Shown one piece after another: positions 14,441 through 26,464 of a stretch of DNA of 59,482 nt. Each line of letters opens with the position of its first letter. Position 1 is the first letter of the stretch. Below the pieces are notes generated by a model that was not told where the DNA came from, did not search any database, and saw only the letters and a program-made list of their open reading frames with translations. The DNA is from a virus (taxonomy: Duplodnaviria; Caudoviricetes), in IMG/VR virus record IMGVR_UViG_3300037851_000299, positions 1-59,482 of that record. The stretch is one strand, 5' to 3'. The position numbers were made by a program, and so were the translations under genes.

Positions 14441-14471
14441 AAAAGGCCCGGCCACCTGAGGCGACCGGGCC
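14441..14471 (-). terminator. Intrinsic terminator
   Basis: GGCCCGGTCGCC/GGTGGCCGGGCC hairpin plus TTTT. Confidence 0.75.
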
Positions 14472-14488: not shown

Positions 14489-15697
14489 TCAGGTCAGCTG
14501 CTCAACCGCGAGCAGCCGCTCGTGGAGGGACGGGGCGTCGAGCAGGCCCTCCGCCCGCCCGTTGCGCTGCTGCCAGAGGAACGTCGCGGTGTAGCCGTGG
14601 GAGCGCGAGCCGCCGAGGCTGAGCACTTCACCGTGCCGCGCCTCGATGGCACTGATGAGCGTGGAGGCGTGGACGTCTGCCTTCGTCATGACCAGCCACA
14701 CGTCCTTGGCCGCGGGCTGCGTCGTGGATTTGGGCTCTTTGGGCGCGGCCGGAGTCTTCGGCGCCTTGGGAGTCGTGGCGGGCTTGGGGGACTTCGCGGC
14801 CTTGTCGGCGCCAGCCGCGCGCTCCTGCTGCGCGAGCCGGAGGTAGTCGCCCTGGGGCAGGCCGGCGCGGGCGCCCTTCAAGCTGACGCTCAGCTCACCG
14901 GCGAGAATGCTGCGCTCCGCGTCCGCCTTGGCGATGCCGTGGCGCTTCGCGATCGTCGTCACCAGGTAGTTCGCCAGCCCAACGTCGTCCGCCCTGAAGC
15001 CGAACACCAGGCGCATCTCCTGGGTGCTCTTGTACTGCGTAGTGGTCGCCGGTCCTTCGACGCGCGTCTCACACTCGGCAGCAACAGGCTCGTTGGCGGG
15101 GGTGGCGTCTTCGCTCTCAGCCGGCGGCAGCGCCGACACGGCGCCTGTGGTGCGAGAGCGCTTCTTCTTGGCGGGCGCGGGGGTAGGAGTCGGCTCCTCG
15201 GTGGCCTCGCCGAACCGGCTGGGGTACACCTTGGGGGGCTGGCCGTCCGACTCAGGCTCCGGCTCGGGCTCGTCCTGCTGCTCGGCGGACTTCGCGCTCG
15301 GCTTCGTCGCACTCAGGTAGTCGAAGCGGACGGTGGCCTTGCCGCCATCCTTGACTCGCTCGACCGTGACTTCCGGCTCGGCGATGGAGAGCACTCTGAC
15401 CACCGAGCCGCCCTTGGTGTAGACGGCCGCGCCGACCTGGATGAACGAGTAGTCGGTGGCGGGGGGCTCGGCAGGGGGCTCGGGCTCAGCGGGCGCGGCA
15501 GCCGGGACGGCCACCTTGCGGCCGGTGCGAGCCTTCTTCGCCTGGGCTTTCGCGGCGGCGACTGGCTCCTCGGGCGCAGCCGCGACCTCAACAGCCGGAA
15601 CGGGGGCGACGGGTTCCTGCGCGTCCACCGGGGCGACGGCAGCGGCCAGCGAGGCCAGGTCAGTCTTCGGGGCGATGGTGTTGCTCTTCCGTGCCAT
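14489..15697 (-). CDS. Ala/Pro/Lys/Glu-rich early protein with small folded domains
   Basis: GGAGG RBS before MARKSNT; central SH3/KOW-like segment FIQVGAAVYTKGGSVVRVLSI. Confidence 0.75.
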   Translation of the reverse strand: MARKSNTIAPKTDLASLAAAVAPVDAQEPVAPVPAVEVAAAPEEPVAAAKAQAKKARTGRKVAVPAAAPAEPEPPAEPPATDYSFIQVGAAVYTKGGSVVRVLSIAEPEVTVERVKDGGKATVRFDYLSATKPSAKSAEQQDEPEPEPESDGQPPKVYPSRFGEATEEPTPTPAPAKKKRSRTTGAVSALPPAESEDATPANEPVAAECETRVEGPATTTQYKSTQEMRLVFGFRADDVGLANYLVTTIAKRHGIAKADAERSILAGELSVSLKGARAGLPQGDYLRLAQQERAAGADKAAKSPKPATTPKAPKTPAAPKEPKSTTQPAAKDVWLVMTKADVHASTLISAIEARHGEVLSLGGSRSHGYTATFLWQQRNGRAEGLLDAPSLHERLLAVEQLT

Positions 15698-15810
15698 GTC
15701 TCTACCTCCAGAGCTTCCCGGGTCCCGCCGGGTCGGTCCGCACGATGGTGCTGGACGTGGCCCGCAGCCGCGGAGCGGCTCGGCCACCTCCAGTACGATC
15801 GGACTTCTGG

Positions 15811-16176
15811 TTATCTGGAATTGGACAGATGCCCCACGTGCGGCCCGACGATCCACTCGCGCACCGCATCGAGCGCCGTCTCCTGCTTGGCCGGTGCGGC
15901 GATCAGCGGTCGCATCGCCTCGATCTGTCCGGCGAGGACGGTCACGTCGTGGATCAGCGACGTGCTTGTGATCGACGAATACACCCGGCTGGGTCCGGAC
16001 TCGGCCATCCGGTCGTGCTCCTCCTGCAGGATCCGCGCGAGCCACGCGAGCTTCTTCAGCAGGTCGTCGTGCTTGCTCTCTACCTGACGGCACAGCTCGA
16101 AGAGCCCCGAGCTGAACGCCTCGTCACGCTGTGCAACGGTCATCTCCTGAAGCGCTGCGAATGTCCTGGTCGCCAT
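15811..16176 (-). CDS. Hypothetical protein
   Basis: GGAGG RBS; helical. Confidence 0.7.
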   Translation of the reverse strand: MATRTFAALQEMTVAQRDEAFSSGLFELCRQVESKHDDLLKKLAWLARILQEEHDRMAESGPSRVYSSITSTSLIHDVTVLAGQIEAMRPLIAAPAKQETALDAVREWIVGPHVGHLSNSR

Positions 16177-16231: not shown

Positions 16232-16843
16232 TCAGGGGTTGGGGTCGCCCATCTTCGCGTCGGCTGCCTGCCACTCCGCGAGGGCGTTGTGCTGCTCGGC
16301 GACCCAGTCGCAGAAGAGAGCATCGTCGCCGCAGCATCGGATCGAGTCCGCGTAGGTCGCGACCGCTTTCGCGTAGAGGCGCTGGCGCTGGTCCGGCGCG
16401 CCCCAGGTTTCGTCGTCCAGCAGGTCGACGCACCACGCGGCCGCTTCTACGGCAGCCGCCTGGGCTCGGGTCAGCGCCAGCTCGTCGCGCTCGTACAGCT
16501 CGTCGAGTTCTCTCACGTACGGCCCGAGCAGCCGCAGCGTGGAGTCGTTGCCGGTGGTCATCACGTCGAGCACGGTGCGGATCACGTCGGGGCGGTCGGC
16601 TTCGTGAAAGGAGAGCATCTCAACCTCCAGCGGGGTGGTCACGAACGTTGCGAGGTGGGTCATCCTGCGGCAGCGGTCACAGGTGACCTCGGCGAGAGTT
16701 CCGGCGCGGTAGTCGCGCCCACGAGTGGGGCGGCGGTTGCCATCGACTGAGCAGGCGGTTCCGGGGGACCAGGCGATGTGGACCTTGGTGCCGCGTCCGA
16801 CGTTGCACACCAGAATCTTCGCGTCGGCCTGTTGAGCGGTCAT
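16232..16843 (-). CDS. Hypothetical protein with H/C metal-binding motif
   Basis: KVH...AC...VTCDRC; GGAGG RBS. Confidence 0.7.
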   Translation of the reverse strand: MTAQQADAKILVCNVGRGTKVHIAWSPGTACSVDGNRRPTRGRDYRAGTLAEVTCDRCRRMTHLATFVTTPLEVEMLSFHEADRPDVIRTVLDVMTTGNDSTLRLLGPYVRELDELYERDELALTRAQAAAVEAAAWCVDLLDDETWGAPDQRQRLYAKAVATYADSIRCCGDDALFCDWVAEQHNALAEWQAADAKMGDPNP

Positions 16844-16845
16844 CG

Positions 16846-17232
16846 TTACCTCCCGGTCGCCGAGACGCGCTCGGCGATCATCTGCTTGGCCTGGGCGAGC
16901 GGGACGGCCCGACGCCGCAGCCGGTTGACGTTGCGGACGATCTCGTCCGCCGTGCGCGAGCCGTTCAGGTACCCGGCGACCGCCTTGGCGAAAGTCGCGA
17001 CCGGCCGGTCACCGCGACTGCTGTTGCAGCGCGAGCAGCAGGTCACCAAGTTGGTCGAGCCGTTGCTGCCGCCCTTGCCGGCGGGGCGGATGTGGTCGAG
17101 CGTGAGCTGGACCCCATCCTCAACCGCCGCCCCGCAGTAAGCGCAGGCGAGCCCGTCGCGAAGGTAAAGAGCCAACCTTCGCTCCTTCCGGATCCAGTTC
17201 ATCCCGTTCCACGCTTGCTGCCGCTTCGTCAT
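16846..17232 (-). CDS. HNH endonuclease
   Basis: RDGLACAYCG...LTLDHIRP...GGSN..NLVTCCSRCN; AGGAGG RBS. Confidence 0.92.
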   Translation of the reverse strand: MTKRQQAWNGMNWIRKERRLALYLRDGLACAYCGAAVEDGVQLTLDHIRPAGKGGSNGSTNLVTCCSRCNSSRGDRPVATFAKAVAGYLNGSRTADEIVRNVNRLRRRAVPLAQAKQMIAERVSATGR

Positions 17233-17251
17233 ACTGTACCTCCTGGCGTGT

Positions 17252-17792
17252 TGGTGGGCGTTGACCGCGTCCCCTGCCCTGCGCGGGGGACCTGGCCAAC
17301 GCCGGCCGGAGCCGGCGTCGCTGGGTTGTTAAGCGATCTTGGCAGCGGCGCGGAGCTGCAGTGCAGTGCCATCGTGGACCTCCGGTGCGCCGCCTGGGCG
17401 CTGTGCTCGAGGGCGTTGAACCGGTCGGCCGCGCCCATCGCAGCAGACCGGATCAACGCCGACTTGCGTCGGCGTTGTCGTTGTTGTCGTTGTCGTTGGA
17501 GTCTGTCCCGGCATCAGCCGCCGGTGCGCTTGGCGGTTCCACCCGCCGTCTGTAGCCTTTGTCGCCGTCGCCGCTTTCCGTGTGCCCCCCGCTCCCCTTC
17601 CCTTGCAACCTCTCCGATCCATCCAACCGGCTCCGCCCGGCTGGCCCCTCGCCCCTCCCCTGCACTGCATCGGTTCGGCCCACACGACCCGCTGCCGCTT
17701 CGGTTCGCCTAAGTTGTCAAAGACGCCGGGCCTGATGCCCCGGCTGCAGGGTCAGAGTCGACCGGATGCCCGGCCAGCAGCGGTCAACGTCC
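17252..17792 (-). ncRNA. Putative large structured RNA in early leader
   Basis: Four nested long-range helices, GCAA and cUCCGg tetraloop hairpins and two potential H-type pseudoknots on the minus strand; no ORF with an RBS. Confidence 0.6.
17713..17744 (-). promoter_or_regulatory. Hairpin plus boxA-like antitermination signal
   Basis: Hairpin GCCGGG...CCCGGC directly followed by GTCTTTGACAAC, resembling rrn boxA. Confidence 0.5.
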
Positions 17793-17883
17793 GCCCCGAG
17801 TAGCTCTCCCACAGGCGGCAAGTGCCCAGCGGTGCTCCCTCGGGGGTTCGGTTGGCGGCTTGGTGCTTGATAACCACAACTTC

Positions 17884-17912
17884 ATGATCGCTCCACCTTT
17901 TCAGTTTGTCAA
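17884..17912 (-). promoter_or_regulatory. Main leftward early promoter
   Basis: TTGACA-17 bp-GATCAT with upstream A-tracts; shares GGCTTGACA with the 9547 promoter. Confidence 0.7.
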
Positions 17913-17995
17913 GCCCTTTTTGTGAAGGCGGCCAACTTTTTTTGTAAAGCCACCAGCCCCTCCCCTAACTCATCCTCCGCCTCGCCGTTGCGTCG

Positions 17996-18004
17996 TGGTA
18001 TGCT
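17996..18004 (+). promoter_or_regulatory. Extended -10 promoter for modification/packaging operon
   Basis: TG-G-TATGCT upstream of AGGAGG RBS; no clear -35. Confidence 0.45.
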
Positions 18005-18027
18005 CGCGAACAGGAGGTGAATGACCA

Positions 18028-18759
18028 ATGGCGCGCACAAACCAGAGCAGAAACCGGGCCGCCGAGATCCCGCCGGCTCCAGAACCGCACATCGTCTACA
18101 TGGTCGCGGACCAGCTTCAGCTCGCCCCGCGCAACCCCAAGGAACACGACCTGACCAGTATCATGCAGTCGCTTCAGCGGTTTGGGTTCGTGGCGCCATG
18201 CGTCCTCAACGAGGCTACTCAGCGCATCGTGGTAGGACATGGTCGTGTCCGCGCGGTACTTCAGCTCCGCGACCAGGGCTGCGAACCTCCGACGCGTGTT
18301 CGAGTTGACGAGGAAGGGCGATGGCTGGTCCCGGTGCTGGCGGGAGTGTCGTTCGCCACGCCGGGGGAGGCCGAGGCGTACTTGGTAGCCGACAACCGGC
18401 TGACGGAGCTGGGCGGCTGGGACCAGGCCGGGCTCTTCCGTGTTCTCGATGAGCTGGCGGAGCTGGGTCCCCAGGCGCTGGAGGGTACGGGCTACGACCC
18501 TGACGACCTGGACACGATGCGGTTCCTGTTCCAGGGGGACGGGGCGGAGGGGCCGGCAGGGGCGGGGGCGGACCCGGCTGGGCAGTTGCACGGCGAGACC
18601 ACGCCTGACCAGCTCCGGGTCATCGTCGTCTTCAAGACCGCGGACGACCGCACCGCGTTCCTGGCCGAGCACCTCGGAAAGACCGGGAAGGACGCGGAGG
18701 CGGTGACGCACCGCTGGGCGCGGCCGGTCACGGAGGAGCCGCAGGAGCCTGCGGCGTGA
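18028..18759 (+). CDS. ParB/Srx N-terminal domain protein
   Basis: RNPKEH, SLQRFGF, IVVGHGR, YLVADNRLTELGGWD. Confidence 0.9.
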   Translation: MARTNQSRNRAAEIPPAPEPHIVYMVADQLQLAPRNPKEHDLTSIMQSLQRFGFVAPCVLNEATQRIVVGHGRVRAVLQLRDQGCEPPTRVRVDEEGRWLVPVLAGVSFATPGEAEAYLVADNRLTELGGWDQAGLFRVLDELAELGPQALEGTGYDPDDLDTMRFLFQGDGAEGPAGAGADPAGQLHGETTPDQLRVIVVFKTADDRTAFLAEHLGKTGKDAEAVTHRWARPVTEEPQEPAA

Positions 18760-19784
18760 GTCGCTCGCTCCTGCTCTGCGGCGACGCGTCGGACAAGCTG
18801 CGAGGCCTACCGGCCGAGTCGGTCCATGCGTGCGTGACGTCGCCTCCGTACTTTGGACTGAGAGACTACGGCACCGCGACGTGGTCCGGCGGGGACGCGG
18901 AGTGCGACCACGTCAACGGGACTGACAGGAACGATAGCGGGAAACGTGAAGGCTTGATGACCGGAGGACCAATGCCGGGTGGTGTTCGGTATTATCGCAA
19001 CACCTGCGGCAAGTGCGGTGCCACCCGTCAGGATCGCCAGCTCGGTCTCGAGTCCACGCCCGAGGAGTACGTGGCCCGCATGGTCGAGGTGTTCCGCGAG
19101 GTGCGGCGGGTGCTGCGGGATGACGGGGTGCTGTGGCTGAACATCGGGGACACGTACAACGCCTACAATGGCAACCGAGGAACCGACTCGCCTTACGCAG
19201 GTGACCGCGGTGTGAAGGAGCCGCTTCCCCCAGGAGGTAGTGGACTCCATGCCAAGGGGCTCAAACAGAAAGACCTCGTCGGCATCCCGTGGCGCGTTGC
19301 CTTCGCCCTCCAGGCCGACGGTTGGTACCTGCGTTGCGATGTGATCTGGGCGAAGCCCAACCCCATGCCGGAGTCGGTCACCGATCGGCCTACCAAGGCG
19401 CACGAGTACGTGTTCCTGATGACGAAGGCGGCGCGGTACTTCTGGGACGCTAGGACGGTGGCGGCGCGCGAAGTCTCTGCCGGCCAGCCTGGGAACGGCA
19501 CCCGCAACCTCCGTACCGTCTGGACCATCGCCACCGCACCGTACGCTGGAGCCCACTTCGCGGCGTTCCCGCCCGAGTTCGTGCGCCGCTGCATCCGCGC
19601 GGGCTGTCCGTATGACGGCGTGGTGCTAGACCCGTTCATGGGCAGCGGCACGACCGGCGCCGTGGCCGCCCAGATGCGTCGGCGCTTCATCGGGATCGAC
19701 TTGAACCCGGAGTACGTCGAGATGGCGAAGGCCCGCATCAGGGACGCCAGGGCTAAGTACCTGTTCCGGGCGCCAGCGCAATGA
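18756..19784 (+). CDS. DNA amino-methyltransferase, beta class (N4-C or N6-A)
   Basis: TSPPY precedes DPFMGSGTTG; IWAKPNPMPESVTDRPTKAHEY; Cys-containing insert. Confidence 0.93.
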   Translation: MSRSLLLCGDASDKLRGLPAESVHACVTSPPYFGLRDYGTATWSGGDAECDHVNGTDRNDSGKREGLMTGGPMPGGVRYYRNTCGKCGATRQDRQLGLESTPEEYVARMVEVFREVRRVLRDDGVLWLNIGDTYNAYNGNRGTDSPYAGDRGVKEPLPPGGSGLHAKGLKQKDLVGIPWRVAFALQADGWYLRCDVIWAKPNPMPESVTDRPTKAHEYVFLMTKAARYFWDARTVAAREVSAGQPGNGTRNLRTVWTIATAPYAGAHFAAFPPEFVRRCIRAGCPYDGVVLDPFMGSGTTGAVAAQMRRRFIGIDLNPEYVEMAKARIRDARAKYLFRAPAQ

Positions 19785-21028
19785 CCATCAAGGACAGCCT
19801 CCCCGCCTACGCCTCGCCCCGCTGGTCCGGCGAGATCGCGGACTGCTCCATGCCGATGACGTTCGACACCTACTCCCGCTGCTCGTACGGCTGCCTCTAC
19901 TGCTTCGCCGCCTACCAGCAGGACATCAACCGGTCGGGGAAGGCGGGGCTAAAGGCCGTCAACGTCGAGCGCGTCAGGCGCATGTTCACGGACCCCGACA
20001 CCCATGGCGGTCAGTTCGCCCCATTCATCCGAGCCCGGAAGGTCATGCAGTGGGGAGGCCTGGCCGACCAGTTCGACGAGTTCGAGCGGAAGCACGGGCG
20101 GACGCTGGAGCTCCTCCGCCTCTTCAGAGAGCTCGAGTACCCGCTGTCCTTCTCGACGAAGGGCACCTGGTGGACCAAGGACGAGCGCTACATGGAGCTG
20201 TTCCGCGGCGCGCCCTGGCACGTCAAGGTCAGCATCATCACGCTGGACGCGGCGAAGGCGACCAAGATCGAGGTCGGTGTGGACAGCCCGGCGGAACGCC
20301 TGGCCGCCATCGCCAGGATCCGGACGTGCATCGACCACGTCACGCTCCGGCTCCGCCCCTTTCTCATTGGAGCGACGAACCCGCGCCATCGTGAGCTGAT
20401 CGCTGCCGCCGCGGACGCCGGGGCCGACAGCGTCTCCACCGAGTACTTCTGCCTGGAGCGCCGTTCCCCGGCGGGCCGCGCCTACCGCTACGACCGCATG
20501 AGCCGCGTTCTCGGCTACGACATCGTCGAGTTCTACAAGCGGCACAGCCCCGGCCAATCTGGTTACCTGCGCCTCTCTCGCCCGGTCAAACGACGGTTCG
20601 TTGACGAGATGGAAGAGGAGTGTCGGCTGCGGGGCCTGCGCTTCCACGTCAGCGATTGCGACTTCAAGGAGCGCGGGTGCACCGGCTCCTGCTGCGGTCT
20701 GCCGGAAGACTGGGCGTGGTGCCGGGGCCAGCTGACCGAGGCGCTGCTGGTCGCCAAGCGGGACGGTCTCGTGCGGTGGTCGCAGCTGAGCCCACACCTG
20801 GAGTACGCCCAGCAGTTCTTCTGGCGAGACGCTGCCGGATTCAACACCGGGGACGCCGAAGCCCGGGCTCGGCACTACTTCCACACGATGTACGACGTGC
20901 TCCACAACGCATGGAACAATCCGCACGAGGCGCACGGACCGTTCCGGTACTTCGGCGGGGTGCTGAAGCCGGTTGGTCTGGACGAGGCCGGCGACCTGGT
21001 GTACCAGTACGACGAGGGGGCGACGTGA
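19781..21028 (+). CDS. Radical SAM enzyme, spore-photoproduct-lyase-like
   Basis: DTYSRCSYGCLYC (CxxxCxxC), STKG, IEVGVDSPAERL, LRPF; extra CTGSCCG. Confidence 0.88.
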   Translation: MTIKDSLPAYASPRWSGEIADCSMPMTFDTYSRCSYGCLYCFAAYQQDINRSGKAGLKAVNVERVRRMFTDPDTHGGQFAPFIRARKVMQWGGLADQFDEFERKHGRTLELLRLFRELEYPLSFSTKGTWWTKDERYMELFRGAPWHVKVSIITLDAAKATKIEVGVDSPAERLAAIARIRTCIDHVTLRLRPFLIGATNPRHRELIAAAADAGADSVSTEYFCLERRSPAGRAYRYDRMSRVLGYDIVEFYKRHSPGQSGYLRLSRPVKRRFVDEMEEECRLRGLRFHVSDCDFKERGCTGSCCGLPEDWAWCRGQLTEALLVAKRDGLVRWSQLSPHLEYAQQFFWRDAAGFNTGDAEARARHYFHTMYDVLHNAWNNPHEAHGPFRYFGGVLKPVGLDEAGDLVYQYDEGAT

Positions 21029-21766: not shown

Positions 21767-22429
21767 ATGTACCGCAACAACGCGGCCGTCGAGCACCGCC
21801 GACGCCAGGTGGCTCTCATCATGCTGACGATGTCCGCTCCCTCTGTCCGCAAGGTCCGGGAAGCGCTGGCCAAGGGGCCGTCCCCCATCGCGGTGAGCGT
21901 CGGCACAGTCGAGCGCGACATGCAGGCTCTCCGAGCGGAATGGAAGCAAGAACGGTTCCGCGACATGGACGAGTTCATGGGGCAAGAGCTGGCGGGCCTA
22001 GCCCTCGCCGAGTCGAGCGCGTGGCGCATCCTGGACCAGCAGCGCCAGCCGATTACGCGGACAATCACGCGCACGCGCCAGGTCCCAGTGCGCGTCCTGC
22101 GCGAAGTTGAAGGCCAGGCCCCGGTGGTCGTCGATGAGATCCGCACCCTGACCCACACCTACACGGAGCAGTACACGCCGCCCCCGGATGCACGGACGCT
22201 CGACACCATCGTCCGCATCAAGGAGCGCCGGGCGAAGATGCTAGGCTTGGATCCACGGGAGCCCGGCGTAACGGTCAACCTCATCCCCGTGACCGTGCTC
22301 GAGCAGGCGTCGCTGGAGGAACTCGATGAGATCGAACGCGGCCGAATCCCCAAGCGGATCGCCCAGCTGGCTACCGGCTCAGCCCTGCCAGCAGGTCCAG
22401 GCGATGCGGGAGAAGGCTCGCAGGCGTAA
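21767..22429 (+). CDS. terS: Terminase small subunit
   Basis: N-terminal HTH (VSVGTVERDM), ERRAKMLGLD; directly upstream of terL. Confidence 0.75.
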   Translation: MYRNNAAVEHRRRQVALIMLTMSAPSVRKVREALAKGPSPIAVSVGTVERDMQALRAEWKQERFRDMDEFMGQELAGLALAESSAWRILDQQRQPITRTITRTRQVPVRVLREVEGQAPVVVDEIRTLTHTYTEQYTPPPDARTLDTIVRIKERRAKMLGLDPREPGVTVNLIPVTVLEQASLEELDEIERGRIPKRIAQLATGSALPAGPGDAGEGSQA

Positions 22430-23804
22430 CGAGTACCGCAAGTCGCTCGGCCTCGTTGACCTGATTCCCGAGCTGTCTCCCCACCTCGACGCGCCGCACC
22501 ACCTTGCGCCCATCGCGGACCTCATCCAACGGTCGCTGACCGAGCCGCTCGAGTTCGTCTCCAACACCCCGCCGCAGCATGGGAAGACCGAGCTCATCGC
22601 TCACGGCTTCGCCTGGCTGGCGAAGCAAGCGCCGGCCCGCCGCCACGTCTACGCGACGTACTCTGCGGAGCGGGCCTGCGACGTCTCCGACCACTACCGC
22701 GCTATCGCCCGGGAGTACGGACTCGAGCCCCGGGGGCGGCGCACCAGGCTGTCCCACGCCGGCGGCGGTAGCGTCCAGTTCGTCGGCCGCGACGGGCTGC
22801 TCGTCGGCTCCCCGGCTGACGGCCTGATCATGGTCGATGACCCGATCAAGAACCGCACGGAGGCGGAGAGCCCCGCGGTGCGCTCCTCGACCGTCAACTG
22901 GCTCCGCGAGGTCGTGCTGACCCGGCGGCACCCGTCCGCGACGGTCGGGATCAACATGACCAGGTGGCACGTGCTGGACCTCGCCGGCGAGATGGTCCGC
23001 TCGGGCTGGCACCACGTCAACCTCGCTGCGCTGGCTCTGCCCGGCGACCCGCTGGGGCGGCAGGTGGGCGAGCCGCTGTGGCCAGAAGGCCGCCCCCTCG
23101 ACTTCCTCTCGAAACAGCAGGACGCGCTGGGTGGGGAGAACGGGTTCTCCTGGGTCAGCCTCTACCAGGGCGTCCCCCGCCGGCGCGGCGGATCCGTCTT
23201 CGACGGCGTCGCCACCTACGACGCGCTACCAGAGCGAGCGGGCCTGCGCTTCAGCCTCGGGGTTGACCTGGCCTACAGCACCACCACGCGGGCTGACTGG
23301 AGCGTGATCGTAGCCGTCGCGATGGACCGGGAAGGGACCGCCTACGTCCTGCAGGTCTGGCGGGAACAGAAGAAGGCCGAGGACTTCGCCCCGGTGCTGC
23401 GCCTCGCCCGCCTCCAGTACCCGACCGCGAAGATGCGGTGGTACGGCGCCGGGGCTGAAAAGGGCGTGGCTGGCCTGCTGAACGCACTCGCCAAGCTGCC
23501 GACGAACGGCGGACCCCCGCCGCCGCAGCTGCGCCTCGACTACATGCCAGCGACGACCGACAAGTTGGTCCGCGCCCTCCCGGTTTCCGCAGCCTGGAAC
23601 CGGGGCCGGGTGCTCGTCCCGCAAGATGCGCCGTGGCTCGAGGCGTTCCTGTCCGAGCTCGCTGACTTCACTGGCCTGGGCGAACAGGACGACCAGGTGG
23701 ACGCACTCGCTGCCGCGTACGACCTCGTCGAGACGGTGCCGATGGCGGGACATGGAGCTGTCGTCTTGGGTCAGCGCGCGATCCCGCGGAACTCCATGGT
23801 GTGA
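22404..23804 (+). CDS. terL: Terminase large subunit
   Basis: Walker A PPQHGKT, Walker B IMVDDP, MTRWH, nuclease GVDLA and DDQVDA. Confidence 0.95.
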   Translation: MREKARRRNEYRKSLGLVDLIPELSPHLDAPHHLAPIADLIQRSLTEPLEFVSNTPPQHGKTELIAHGFAWLAKQAPARRHVYATYSAERACDVSDHYRAIAREYGLEPRGRRTRLSHAGGGSVQFVGRDGLLVGSPADGLIMVDDPIKNRTEAESPAVRSSTVNWLREVVLTRRHPSATVGINMTRWHVLDLAGEMVRSGWHHVNLAALALPGDPLGRQVGEPLWPEGRPLDFLSKQQDALGGENGFSWVSLYQGVPRRRGGSVFDGVATYDALPERAGLRFSLGVDLAYSTTTRADWSVIVAVAMDREGTAYVLQVWREQKKAEDFAPVLRLARLQYPTAKMRWYGAGAEKGVAGLLNALAKLPTNGGPPPPQLRLDYMPATTDKLVRALPVSAAWNRGRVLVPQDAPWLEAFLSELADFTGLGEQDDQVDALAAAYDLVETVPMAGHGAVVLGQRAIPRNSMV

Positions 23805-24141
23805 CCGCGGCGGGCCGCTCGGGCTCACCGCCTGAACGCTAATCGGAAATGCCTCGAAATTCGCCCTAGGATCGCGCGGGGCGGTCGGGACGTGACCCCG
23901 CCCCCTGGGTGCGAAACGAAGGCACAGGGTCACCAGCGCTCGGGGCGGGCTATCCTAGGGGGCGGCTATATACGCCGGCGGCCGGGCCGGCGACCCGATA
24001 CGCTCCGCCAGCTGGTCCGCATCCTCGCCCGGCGGGGTCTTCCCAGAGCCACCGCGCGTAAGTTGACGTCCTGCTCGCCGCACGTAAGTGAGGTGGTGCT
24101 ATATTATAAATGCGCTCCGCAGATCCCTGCAACTACACGCC

Positions 24142-24528
24142 TTAACCCGGTTTGGGAAGCCTTCCACGAAAGGCTTCGAGTAAGCCTTCCGCGGCGCTCT
24201 TAACTCTTGCTCGGCCAGACACTTCCAGACGTTGCGCTAAGTATAAGGTGGAGGTGCAATGGTTGCCGACACTTAGCCAGCGACCGTCCGGAAACGCCAT
24301 GCTGAAATCCGACGGAGTGGAAGGCTTTCGCCAGGCACCTAACAACCGCAGTACCATGGCATTAGGTAGGTGGTCGCTAAGTATCGCAGCTAAGTTGCGC
24401 AACCCCCCCGAAACCGCGATTCTGTGTTTTGTAAAGGTCGTCACGGCAAGGTATACATAGAACGTGTGTTAACCGGGTTTCGAAAGCCTTCCGGAAAGGC
24501 TTCCACGGAAGGCTTTCGGTAAGGCTTC
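24142..24528. repeat. Two degenerate direct-repeat clusters of AAG(C/G)CTT boxes
   Basis: TTAACCCGGTTTGGGAAGCCTTCC at 24142 and TTAACCGGGTTTCGAAAGCCTTCC at 24469, each with 3-4 boxes at 12-13 bp period. Confidence 0.8.
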
Positions 24529-24679
24529 CAAACTACCAGAAACAAAGGGGAACGAGCTAAGTTACAGGGTGGTCGAGAAAGGCTTAATGAGGGGGTAGGG
24601 GGAGTCTTCTAGACTCTATCAAGAGAGTACTACTAAGAGAGTATAACAAGAGACTCAAACCTCTACTTCTGGAGGGGAG

Positions 24680-24709
24680 TTGACAGAGGGGAACCACGAG
24701 GGGTAGCGT
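24680..24709 (+). promoter_or_regulatory. Promoter for head genes (probably leaderless mRNA)
   Basis: TTGACA-18 bp-TAGCGT, ATG 6 nt downstream. Confidence 0.55.
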
Positions 24710-24715
24710 TGAGGC

Positions 24716-26464
24716 ATGGCTCGCCGCCGAAACGCGCCGTCCCCGGGCCGTGAAACGCCCACATTCGACGCTGCGGAAGTGAGCCAGGCGCCACGGGACG
24801 CAGAGGGTCGTTTACAGGGGGCGCCGCAGTCCGCCGACCTCAAGGTCCACTACACGCTCGGCCGCCTGTTCCAATCCTGGGTGGACACCACCACCTACAC
24901 TCCGGCGAACATCACGTCCGTCCTGCGCCGGGCGGACGCCGGCGAGCTTTGGCCGCAGCTCTCGATGTTCCGCAAGATGATCGAGATGGACGGGGCGCTG
25001 GGGAACGCCGTGGAGACGCGGCGCGAGTCCATCATGCGAACCGAGCCGATGCTATTCCCGCCGCGAGGCATGGACGGGGACAAGCGGGCGAACTACGCCT
25101 GCGACTACGTGCGCGACGTGCTCGACCAGATGGCGGGCTACCCCGACTGTCTGGAGCTAATGCAGGACGGTCCCATCCTGGGCTTCTGCGGGCTGGAGCT
25201 GGAGTGGTGGCAGACGTTGCCGGTGGCAATTTCGGCGACGCCGGACGAGTGCTGGCGGTGGGGCTCGTGGTCCACGCACCCGACATGGGAGGTGCCAACG
25301 AGCGGGGCCTATGCCACGGCTCTGCTGAACACCCGCAAGACGGGGCTTGGGCTGCAGGTCATGGACGACGGCGGCAACTGGCACGACGTGCCGGAGAACA
25401 AGTTCGTGATCTACGCGCCGGTCGGGTCCTCCCGCAACTTCACGCGGCGAGGAGCGATGCGCGGCTGCGTGTGGCCCTGGTCGGTGCGCAACCTTGGCGT
25501 GGCGGACTGGGCAACCTACACCGACATCTTCGGGGTGCCGCCGAGGATGCTGAAGACCTCGCGGAACGAGGATGACCCCGTCATCGCCGAGGTGTTCGAG
25601 GCGCTCAAGGCGATGGCGTCGGCCGGGGTGGCGATCATCCCCGAGGGCTTCGAGCTGGTGAACCTGGCGTCGATGACCGGCGCCAGCGGGTCCCCTCACC
25701 CCGACATCATCCGGTGGGCCGAGCACGCCATGACGCGCCGGATGCTCGGACAGGTGCTGACGGCGGATACCGCCGGCGCCACCGGGACGTTGTCTGCCGC
25801 CATCGTCGCGAAGGACGTCAAGCTGGAGAAGCAAAAAGAGGACGCCCGCGGGGTCGGCAATGCCTTTCGCCGTGACGTCGTCTGGCCAACGGTCCAGGTG
25901 GGGCTCGGTCCAGACTGGCCGGTGCCGGACTTTGTCCTGGTCGTGGACGACATCGAGGAGCGTAAGGCGCGAGTGAGCTTCTTCGCCTCCGTGGTGAACG
26001 AGCTTGGGATGCGGGTGCCCGCCGGCCCGCTGTACACCGCGTTGCGGGTCCCGAAGCCGCACGACCTCAGTGAGGACGAGCTGCTGCACGGGAAGCAGGT
26101 GCCTCCACAGTGGGTGCCCCAGCAGCCGCTGCTCGCGAGCGGGCCTCCCGCGGCCGGTGCCAGCCTCGTCACGGCGGCGGCCTCGGCGCCGGTCTTGCCC
26201 CCGGGCGAGCAAGAGGCGCTGGACGCCCTGGCGACGTTGAGCGACGACCAGTGGGAGGACCTGCGCGACGAGTCGCTGACGCTGCAGGTGGCGCGCATCC
26301 TGGAGAAGAATCCCAAGATCGGGCCGGAGCAGCTGGCGAAGCGGCTTACCTGGCTGTACCCGCAGCTCGAGCACGAGCACCTGGCTGAGGTGATCGAGCA
26401 CGTCTTGCTCGCGGCCGAGGCGAACGGGCGCGCTGCGGTCGCGAACGACGCAGCCGGGGGCTGA
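24716..26464 (+). CDS. Portal protein, Mu gp29/DUF935-like
   Basis: ADAGE, GFCGLELEW, DWATYTDIFGVP, GVAIIP, LGQVLT. Confidence 0.92.
   Translation: MARRRNAPSPGRETPTFDAAEVSQAPRDAEGRLQGAPQSADLKVHYTLGRLFQSWVDTTTYTPANITSVLRRADAGELWPQLSMFRKMIEMDGALGNAVETRRESIMRTEPMLFPPRGMDGDKRANYACDYVRDVLDQMAGYPDCLELMQDGPILGFCGLELEWWQTLPVAISATPDECWRWGSWSTHPTWEVPTSGAYATALLNTRKTGLGLQVMDDGGNWHDVPENKFVIYAPVGSSRNFTRRGAMRGCVWPWSVRNLGVADWATYTDIFGVPPRMLKTSRNEDDPVIAEVFEALKAMASAGVAIIPEGFELVNLASMTGASGSPHPDIIRWAEHAMTRRMLGQVLTADTAGATGTLSAAIVAKDVKLEKQKEDARGVGNAFRRDVVWPTVQVGLGPDWPVPDFVLVVDDIEERKARVSFFASVVNELGMRVPAGPLYTALRVPKPHDLSEDELLHGKQVPPQWVPQQPLLASGPPAAGASLVTAAASAPVLPPGEQEALDALATLSDDQWEDLRDESLTLQVARILEKNPKIGPEQLAKRLTWLYPQLEHEHLAEVIEHVLLAAEANGRAAVANDAAGG

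Follow-up and report, generated by a model that had tools for sequence, protein, structure and literature searches.

Double-hairpin modules in the predicted leader of an HNH endonuclease operon of an orphan phage

What is the role of a GC-rich, apparently highly structured stretch of about 540 nt lying between a promoter-like site and a stand-alone HNH endonuclease gene? The question is raised by positions 17252 to 17792 of the phage record IMGVR_UViG_3300037851_000299 of IMG/VR (Duplodnaviria; Caudoviricetes), analysed over its entire length of 59,482 nucleotides, hereafter the window. In the original prediction the stretch, read on the minus strand, was taken for a single RNA held together by nested long-range helices (P1 to P4), and assigned to a new class of non-coding RNA (ncRNA), serving either as partner or guide scaffold of the HNH protein or as a cis-acting antiterminator. 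The local hairpins included in that description are real and exceptional; the nested fold of 540 nt is not borne out. The reading favoured here, with a probability of about 0.45, slightly short of an even chance, is that the region is a lineage-specific, non-coding, cis-acting 5' leader of about 645 nt belonging to the leftward operon, with processing of the RNase III type as the first choice of function. In the models, the well-supported structure is local only, and consists of a 5' hairpin and two diverged, tandem double-hairpin modules of about 68 nt.

Local hairpins in a non-coding gap

A gap of 795 bp (17233-18027) separates two divergent operons. Non-coding stretches of 600 nt are unusual in this tightly packed genome, in which most gaps are shorter than 100 nt. 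The genes of the record share a coding signature, with a GC content of 0.75-0.95 at third codon positions (GC3) and near 0.5 at second codon positions (GC2); the HNH gene has 0.90 and 0.54, respectively. The open reading frames (ORFs) of the gap have GC3 values of 0.62-0.78 and GC2 values of 0.61-0.74, and, because this flat profile is common to all of them, the region is non-coding. The gap ORF of 75 aa has no homolog among the length-matched proteins of a collection of 5.8 billion. That of 118 aa, compared with 1.84 billion representatives, has a single match, a 767-aa protein in which 13 repeated stretches align to the Gly/Arg-rich residues 9-45, and the match is attributed to repetitive low complexity.

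The sole sigma-70-like promoter found in the interval 16500-18500 is located at 17912-17884 (1 site versus 0.1 expected in shuffles). From its position, transcription is predicted to start near 17877, which sets the leader at about 645 nt. The main features of the locus are the following.

17233-17877, minus strand: predicted untranslated leader of the HNH-led operon, about 645 nt, set by the promoter, the HNH start and the lack of coding signature and protein homologs
17884-17912, minus strand: sigma-70-like promoter of the leftward operon (TTGACA, 17 nt, GATCAT; 10 of 12 matches)
17747-17798, minus strand: 5' hairpin H1, which uses GACGUUGACC, the 5'-most copy of a repeated motif
17409-17477, minus strand: unit B, 69 nt, made of a 10-bp hairpin with GCAA loop (17454-17477) that has 7 nt in common with the base of an imperfect hairpin of 22 bp (17412-17460)
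17254-17320, minus strand: unit A, 67 nt, made of a 10-bp hairpin with UCCG loop (17297-17320) that has 7 nt in common with the base of an imperfect hairpin of 21 bp (17257-17303)
16846-17232, minus strand: stand-alone 128-aa HNH endonuclease, first gene of the leftward operon (HNH_5, E 9e-13; HNH, E 5.6e-11)

Units A and B are paralogs. They lie 157 nt apart in direct orientation and are 68% identical over 73 nt, 47 of the 69 columns of the unit alignment being identical. Unit A ends 12 nt ahead of the ribosome-binding site of the HNH gene (17239-17244). In each unit the 3' arm of the small hairpin ends with GGCGUUG, and the same seven bases open the imperfect hairpin of 21-22 bp, which closes with CAACGCC. 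The two hairpins must consequently either compete for these bases, or divide them and abut; in the local minimum-energy folds of the units they share them out and abut. The small hairpin with the GCAA loop had been described correctly, with its 10 bp at 17454-17477. The one with the UCCG loop had been given 9 bp; it is present, and with one G-U pair reaches 10 bp at 17297-17320. The observation that the small loops fall into stable tetraloop classes (GNRA, UNCG) on the transcribed strand only holds for both.

The stability of the units is exceptional. In an energy scan of 23,770 windows of 60 nt, covering both strands, the units fill the first three ranks, with unit A scoring -43.5 on the plus strand (first) and -42.6 on the minus strand (second), and unit B -41.2 on the minus strand (third). 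Folded locally, unit B reaches a z-score of -4.26 on the minus strand, and unit A reaches -2.65 and -3.32 on the minus and plus strand, respectively. The two palindromes of 47-49 nt are beyond chance in self-comparison (E 1.4e-6 and 1.7e-5), and the long stems feature 21 and 22 pairs with 2-4 mismatches. The small hairpin of unit B has a pair probability of 1.00 in all three transcript contexts folded. A covariance model of the two units gives 94.4 bits to unit B and 83.4 bits to unit A, and finds no third copy of the module in the window; the best match after the units and their mirror images (18.2 bits, E 0.057) lies outside the rightward leader.

The small hairpin is kept in both units, with pairing in 20 of 20 cells; one A-U pair is replaced by G-C through a double change, and one G-U by A-U. 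The loops differ at three of four bases, and the chance that both match a stable tetraloop class on the transcribed strand only is about 0.002, as estimated by us from base composition. The 5' hairpin is strand-specific as well. An 86-nt segment carrying H1 folds at -45.6 kcal/mol on the minus strand (z -2.68) and at -31.8 kcal/mol on the plus strand (z 0.02), and thus on the minus strand only. As far as can be judged from sequence, tetraloop classes, intact small hairpin and strand-specific H1 are in favour of an RNA made from the transcribed strand.

The long-range fold and a repeated motif

The complementarities behind the four helices are all present. P1 corresponds to a 16-nt inverted repeat, 88% complementary (14/16), at 17253-17268 / 17780-17795; P4 is perfect (10/10, 17357-17366 / 17660-17669); P2 (6 bp) and P3 (8 bp) are read directly from the sequence. 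The stretch is nevertheless not one exceptional nested fold, as ranks, E-values and pair probabilities are all against it. The expectation that it should fold better than dinucleotide shuffles holds on the minus strand (z -3.47). The plus strand reaches z -3.02; since both strands beat their shuffles about equally, the folding excess belongs to the DNA and not to one strand. When 219 windows of the same record were regressed on GC content, the 541-nt fold ranked 15 of 219 on the minus strand (z -1.46) and 111 of 219 on the plus strand, and several coding windows surpass it. When 941 nt were compared with themselves, P1 (E 0.38), P4 (E 1.3) and P3 (E 16) were at chance level. The ensemble probability of P3 and P4 is 0.00 in all three transcript contexts. 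P1 (0.80-0.89) and P2 (0.63-0.64) are frequent in the two shorter contexts, and drop to 0.02 and 0.01, respectively, once 330 nt of HNH coding RNA are added.

Rfam models found no match at gathering score in the whole window. A permissive scan of 16700-18100 gave six matches with E-values of 0.49-5.4, none of which was to HEARO or other known guide-RNA families. By window ranking, self-comparison and ensemble probabilities, the proposal of a new class of 540-nt nested-fold ncRNA is unsupported, and an autonomous folded RNA of this size is not supported either.

The appearance of nesting has a simple source. The 10-nt motif GGCGTTGRYC occurs in the region in six copies of alternating orientation, at 17257, 17412 and 17470 on the plus strand and at 17303, 17460 and 17791 on the minus strand. 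Any sense copy can pair with any antisense copy, and P1, the cross-matches and the apparent nesting follow from this. The large apparent fold of this 70% GC sequence is the product of the repeated motif. The exact sequence GGCGTTGA is found eight times in 59.5 kb, with three occurrences inside a 204-bp stretch of this region, and all six [G/A]CGTTG sites among the 951 bases scanned (17150-18100) fall inside the region.

Such clustering brings to mind an element working at the DNA level. Motif copies and palindromes could be binding sites or cruciform-type signals for a DNA-binding protein of the phage or of its host, such as operators or roadblocks for the leftward promoter, a replication origin or a packaging-recognition site. 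Besides the clustered, alternating copies, this is suggested by the location between two divergent transcription units and by the palindromes, which are equally good on both strands, unit A being more stable on the plus strand. The half-sites, however, are spaced about 17 bp and 40-42 bp from centre to centre, which is awkward for a dimeric binder. Stable tetraloop classes are restricted in both units to the transcribed strand, and H1, which depends on G-U pairs, forms on the minus strand only. GGCGTTGRYC-like motifs do not mark other control regions of the genome, and the genes for the replication initiator and the terminase are 12 kb and 4.5 kb away, respectively. A DNA-level element is, all considered, quite unlikely.

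The HNH gene and its relatives

The 128-aa protein matches in Pfam only HNH_5, HNH, HNH_4 and Endonuclease_7. At E <= 0.001 it hits 31 PHROG families; the best 25 of the 31 include 20 families of HNH endonucleases, two of endonuclease VII and three of no known function. The idea that the upstream RNA is a trans-acting partner or guide scaffold of this RuvC-less HNH protein, in the way omega RNA works with IscB, rests on position: as in IscB/omega RNA (HEARO) loci, a structured RNA region sits directly upstream, on the same strand, of an HNH-domain gene, and shares its promoter. IscB effectors measure about 400-500 aa, and in them the HNH domain is inserted into a RuvC fold. The phage protein is far shorter and features HNH-type domains only, and at the RNA level there is no covariance-model match at gathering score, nor any to HEARO in the permissive scan (best E 0.49). 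The global fold is moreover not robust.

If the RNA served the protein, homologs of the HNH gene should have kept it. A total of 90 loci were compared, 15 with HNH relatives from viral contigs, 70 with HNH relatives from metagenome contigs and 5 with ParB-like relatives; in a genome collection, 266 pattern matches to HNH relatives were obtained and none was confirmed. Nothing similar to the 795-bp region was found in the 90 loci (best blastn E 0.25, no nhmmer hit), and the covariance model detected no module in the 82 loci to which it was applied (best 16.2 bits, E 0.89). The expected linkage of HNH gene and RNA is thus missing in the loci searched, unlike in HEARO. The closest syntenic relative, L003 (same contig as L038), encodes an HNH protein 74% identical and features the same divergent ParB-like/methylase neighbour. 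Its HNH promoter (TTGACA, 17 nt, TATATT, at 2876-2904) shares with that of the window the 11-nt block cTTGACAAACT (TTGACAAACT), and its leader measures only about 42 nt. In L045 a ParB-like/methylase gene is also divergent, about 280 nt from the HNH gene. Other HNH relatives have unrelated upstream genes, mostly at short distance, and their neighbours vary, including a methylase, small and large terminase, a nicotinamide phosphoribosyl transferase and an Erf-like protein. The notion of a ribonucleoprotein partner or guide scaffold fails every test run, whether by Pfam, Rfam, co-conservation or the leader of L003, and is most improbable. Because the leader of L003 is short and the upstream genes of the other relatives are unrelated and at short distances, the long leader is, by comparison of these loci, lineage-specific, and the HNH family does not travel with it.

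The modules were sought more widely by pattern. The exact hairpin pattern and a degenerate module pattern had no match in 2.9 million viral contigs, and the latter had no exact match in 185,579 prokaryote species, each represented by one genome. A loose palindrome-end pattern retrieved 45 stretches, about the number estimated from chance, with model scores of at most 24.8 bits; the two best-scoring, L092 and L123, were inspected, lie inside long ORFs and were rejected as chance. When compared in six frames with 135 loci and with the remainder of the window, the region yielded only scattered, non-colinear fragments of at most 33 bits, attributable to compositional noise. L003 and L022 have an endonuclease gene at this junction; the region was searched for a remnant of it, and no match was found.

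The neighbours deserve a comment on their own. The ParB-like domain and the DNA methylase are encoded by two overlapping ORFs in the window (18028-19784), and are fused in L003 (828-2021, 397 aa) and in L045 (1608-2702, 364 aa). The ParB-like/methylase gene is divergent from the HNH gene in the window, L003 and L045, and in L004 a methylase is directly upstream of the HNH gene, which hints at a recurrent HNH-methylase pairing. In the window the methylase is followed by a radical SAM protein (19781-21028; Pfam E 3e-5, below the curated cut-off). A 410-aa protein of L005 (934-2166), whose gene is the second one upstream of the HNH relative, resembles a radical SAM enzyme too by its translation, and hits no PHROG family. 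Radical SAM protein and methylase may form a DNA-modification module.

Possible role of the leader, and its genome setting

An element acting in cis on the leftward operon is plausible, and preferred to an HNH partner, because the hairpins lie in the predicted leader, the tetraloops are proper to the transcribed strand only, and a strong terminator-like hairpin is found 2.8 kb downstream. Two additional features are relevant here.

14445-14471, minus strand: strong intrinsic-terminator-like hairpin of 12 pairs, 10 of which G-C, followed by TTTTCT; 2.8 kb downstream of the leader
17229-17383, minus strand: 47-codon frame opening downstream of unit B with a good ribosome-binding site, GGAGG (17379-17383), 6 nt and ATG (17370-17372), and crossing unit A

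The leader is presumably transcribed, and may fold in vivo and have a regulatory effect. Hairpins formed on the nascent transcript would act in cis on their own mRNA, and set the amount of HNH-operon message that is made, processed or translated. Double-strand-specific processing of the RNase III type, with stabilisation, at the two long hairpins is the first choice; the cuts would trim the long leader off the HNH message, as happens in the T7 early and lambda N leaders. The long stems, of 21-22 bp and mismatched in places, are in the size range of substrates of double-strand-specific RNases. In both of these phages, too, the long untranslated early leader has an imperfect hairpin of about 20 bp just upstream of the ribosome-binding site of the first gene, as is predicted here, and the stems of 21 and 22 pairs correspond to the two helical turns, roughly, of processed leaders. 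Differently from these, no nut-like boxA or boxB was identified, and the modules come in duplicate, with a tetraloop hairpin joined to each. The 47-codon frame, if translated, would melt unit A and deliver ribosomes to the HNH gene; its TGA overlaps the HNH ATG (ATGA). The frame has a GC3 of 0.69 and falls within the 75-aa ORF, which has no homologs; since it lacks coding composition, its peptide is probably not under selection.

Several data speak against this role. In long-context folds the long hairpin of unit B gives way to other pairings (probability 0.00), and the one of unit A has a probability between 0.18 and 0.78. With two copies only, 233 of 500 shuffles reach the observed covariation, and the three pairs that differ between the units in the lower long hairpin show no compensation, each being disrupted in one of the two. 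The long palindromes fold about as well on the opposite strand (unit A, -49.7 on the plus and -43.1 on the minus strand), so that pairing by itself does not discriminate between RNA and DNA; mismatches of the long hairpin, counted by hand on the unit alignment, are five on the minus strand and six on the plus strand. Finally, in L003 the promoter block is only 77 nt before the HNH start. As L003 lacks a leader of this kind, the element is dispensable for expression of the HNH operon, and could be neutral.

The latter point leads to a different view of the region, namely functionless debris, either inserted recently between promoter and HNH gene, for example as an element without genes derived from a hairpin-ended transposon (IS200/IS605 or REP type), or born by tandem duplication of a short ancestral leader, and tolerated since it carries no terminator. 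The two similar imperfect palindromes in direct orientation, and the 16-nt inverted repeat (14/16) at the ends of the region, suit this origin, and so does the failure to find a homolog anywhere searched. The leader also hosts an exact 12-nt copy of HNH codons 2-5 (17217-17228; CGAAGCGGCAGC, minus strand) at 17691-17702, which is at chance level (E 0.11), and a second TTGACAACTT at 17711-17720, which resembles the -35 block of the promoter and alone is at chance level too; both may be scraps of local duplication. On the other hand, the terminal repeat is itself at chance level, as seen above for P1, and is not flanked by a target-site duplication. There is no second copy within the phage, and the module pattern lacks exact matches in the prokaryote genomes and viral contigs searched. 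In addition, the units have diverged to 68% with the small hairpin intact in both through pair-preserving changes. Debris is on this evidence unlikely.

The comparison with mobile elements gives a similar picture. Derivatives of IS200/IS605 elements and REPs likewise feature direct-oriented imperfect palindromes, no target duplication and lineage-specific insertion. Their stems are generally shorter than the long stems of the leader. The PHROG scans of window proteins revealed no transposase gene; the element is single-copy in the genome, and the pattern scans of the collections, which cannot be said to cover the host as the host genome is not identified, gave no match. Multiple copies, significant terminal repeats (E 0.38) and a target-site signature, in the form of flanking direct repeats, are all missing.

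The put RNAs of phage HK022 (putL and putR) provide a closer resemblance. RNAs of this type feature a triplex, bind the zinc-binding domain of the RNA polymerase beta-prime subunit and suppress terminators downstream, and one copy follows each of the two divergent early promoters. According to PMC9378689, putL and putR are factor-independent antitermination elements of about 70 nt made of two stem-loops, present in two sequence-related copies per phage downstream of early promoters, putR being about 270 nt downstream. Measured against this account, the modules of 67-69 nt, with two predicted adjoining stem-loops, are similar, and two related copies are found downstream of the leftward promoter, with the strong terminator-like hairpin 2.8 kb further. 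Differently from HK022, both modules are in one leader (at about +401 and +558) and none is in the rightward operon; they have no detectable sequence relation to any Rfam family, and the likeness is one of size, two-stem layout and duplication. By analogy, the modules could be a new class of tandemly duplicated, protein-independent RNA controlling elongation, with the logic of put and an unrelated sequence; it would modify the RNA polymerase departing from the leftward promoter, and in this way allow reading through the strong terminator at 14445-14471 into the recombination and replication genes. This version of the antiterminator originally proposed is very unlikely.

Leaders with repeated, mutually complementary segments are known also from the immunity RNAs encoded in early-operon leaders, P4 CI RNA and P1 c4. 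The sense/antisense motif, present six times, is reminiscent of them, and its segments could similarly pair in alternative ways. Here each motif has a local partner, with which it is predicted to form hairpins, and no P4- or P1-like genes emerged from the PHROG scans.

The element is thus an orphan structured leader of a known general kind. If functional, the modules would add a further case, unrelated in sequence, to the hairpins that control early leaders of phages, and one from a high-GC lineage that is uncultured. The overlap between tetraloop hairpin and long hairpin, preserved in both copies despite their divergence, would then be a compact switch or a signal for processing. In practical terms the outcome is mainly negative, in that the nested fold does not stand out from ordinary coding windows, and the link with the HNH protein is positional only.

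The gap hosts other sequence features, listed below.

17917-17949, no strand assigned: pair of direct repeats of 11 nt, AT-rich and 22 nt apart, immediately upstream of the -35 hexamer
17474-17498, minus strand: CA-rich repeat, (CAACGA)n, predicted to remain unpaired and adjoining unit B on its 5' side
17636-17660, minus strand: G-quadruplex-type motif within a G-rich tract, the only such motif on the minus strand

The AT-rich repeats (TTTTTGTGAAG and TTTTTGTAAAG, plus strand) are the most AT-rich spot of the gap, and from their sequence are a candidate UP-element-like or regulator site. The CAA/GAC repeat and the G-rich tract had been pointed out earlier, and are both there; the tract holds one canonical G-quadruplex motif at 17636-17660. 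No enrichment of such motifs is seen, and with seven of them in the whole window the leader copy is unremarkable. The GCAA hairpin was also considered as a terminator and rejected, because it would qualify on the plus strand only, where nothing is transcribed into it.

The record is linear, is rated 87% complete, has a GC content of about 67% and derives from freshwater metagenomes; PHROG scans point to a siphovirus-like layout. The leftward arm (minus strand, from 17232 downwards) opens with the HNH endonuclease, followed by unknown genes and, further on, by Cas4-like and RecE-like exonucleases, a DnaD/O-like initiator and a RuvC-like resolvase. The rightward arm (from 18028) encodes the ParB-like domain protein, the DNA methylase, the radical SAM protein and the large terminase (22326-23804), and beyond it portal, protease, capsid, tape measure and tail genes; the 582-aa protein at 24716-26464 is identified by PHROGs as the portal. 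The terminator-like hairpin at 14445-14471 comes after the fourth gene of the leftward operon, directly past the stop of ORF 14489-16093, and is followed by a gap of 482 bp. It suggests that the arm is split into an immediate four-gene unit and a later one. Terminator-like sites total 11, versus 10.2 in shuffles, and are not in excess; this one is distinct only by stem length and T tract.

Relatives of the phage were sought with several queries. The terminase is at most 32.5% identical to its nearest counterparts in cultured phages; the phage is accordingly an orphan to which no host can be assigned. The portal protein found no relative among viral contigs, and the 203-aa gene beside the HNH gene had a single 28% match, on a contig otherwise having nothing in common with the window. 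Blastn of 16800-18100 against 50,697 phage records gave no match. Three short low-depth contigs from a second freshwater run of another study are identical to the window (15989-16139, 17819-18070, 18320-18470), and the same phage is therefore present in at least two data sets; the contig pieces from the two DNA runs are all identical to the window, with no sequence variants among them.

A further gap, of 911 bp (23805-24715), is found between large terminase and portal genes, and includes part of the kilobase with the lowest GC content of the record (0.585, 24001-25000). It carries tandem repeats at 24376-24401 (13 nt x 2) and 24482-24529 (12 nt x 3.9, GAAAGGCTTCCG, palindromic), and may be a second control region or host small genes.

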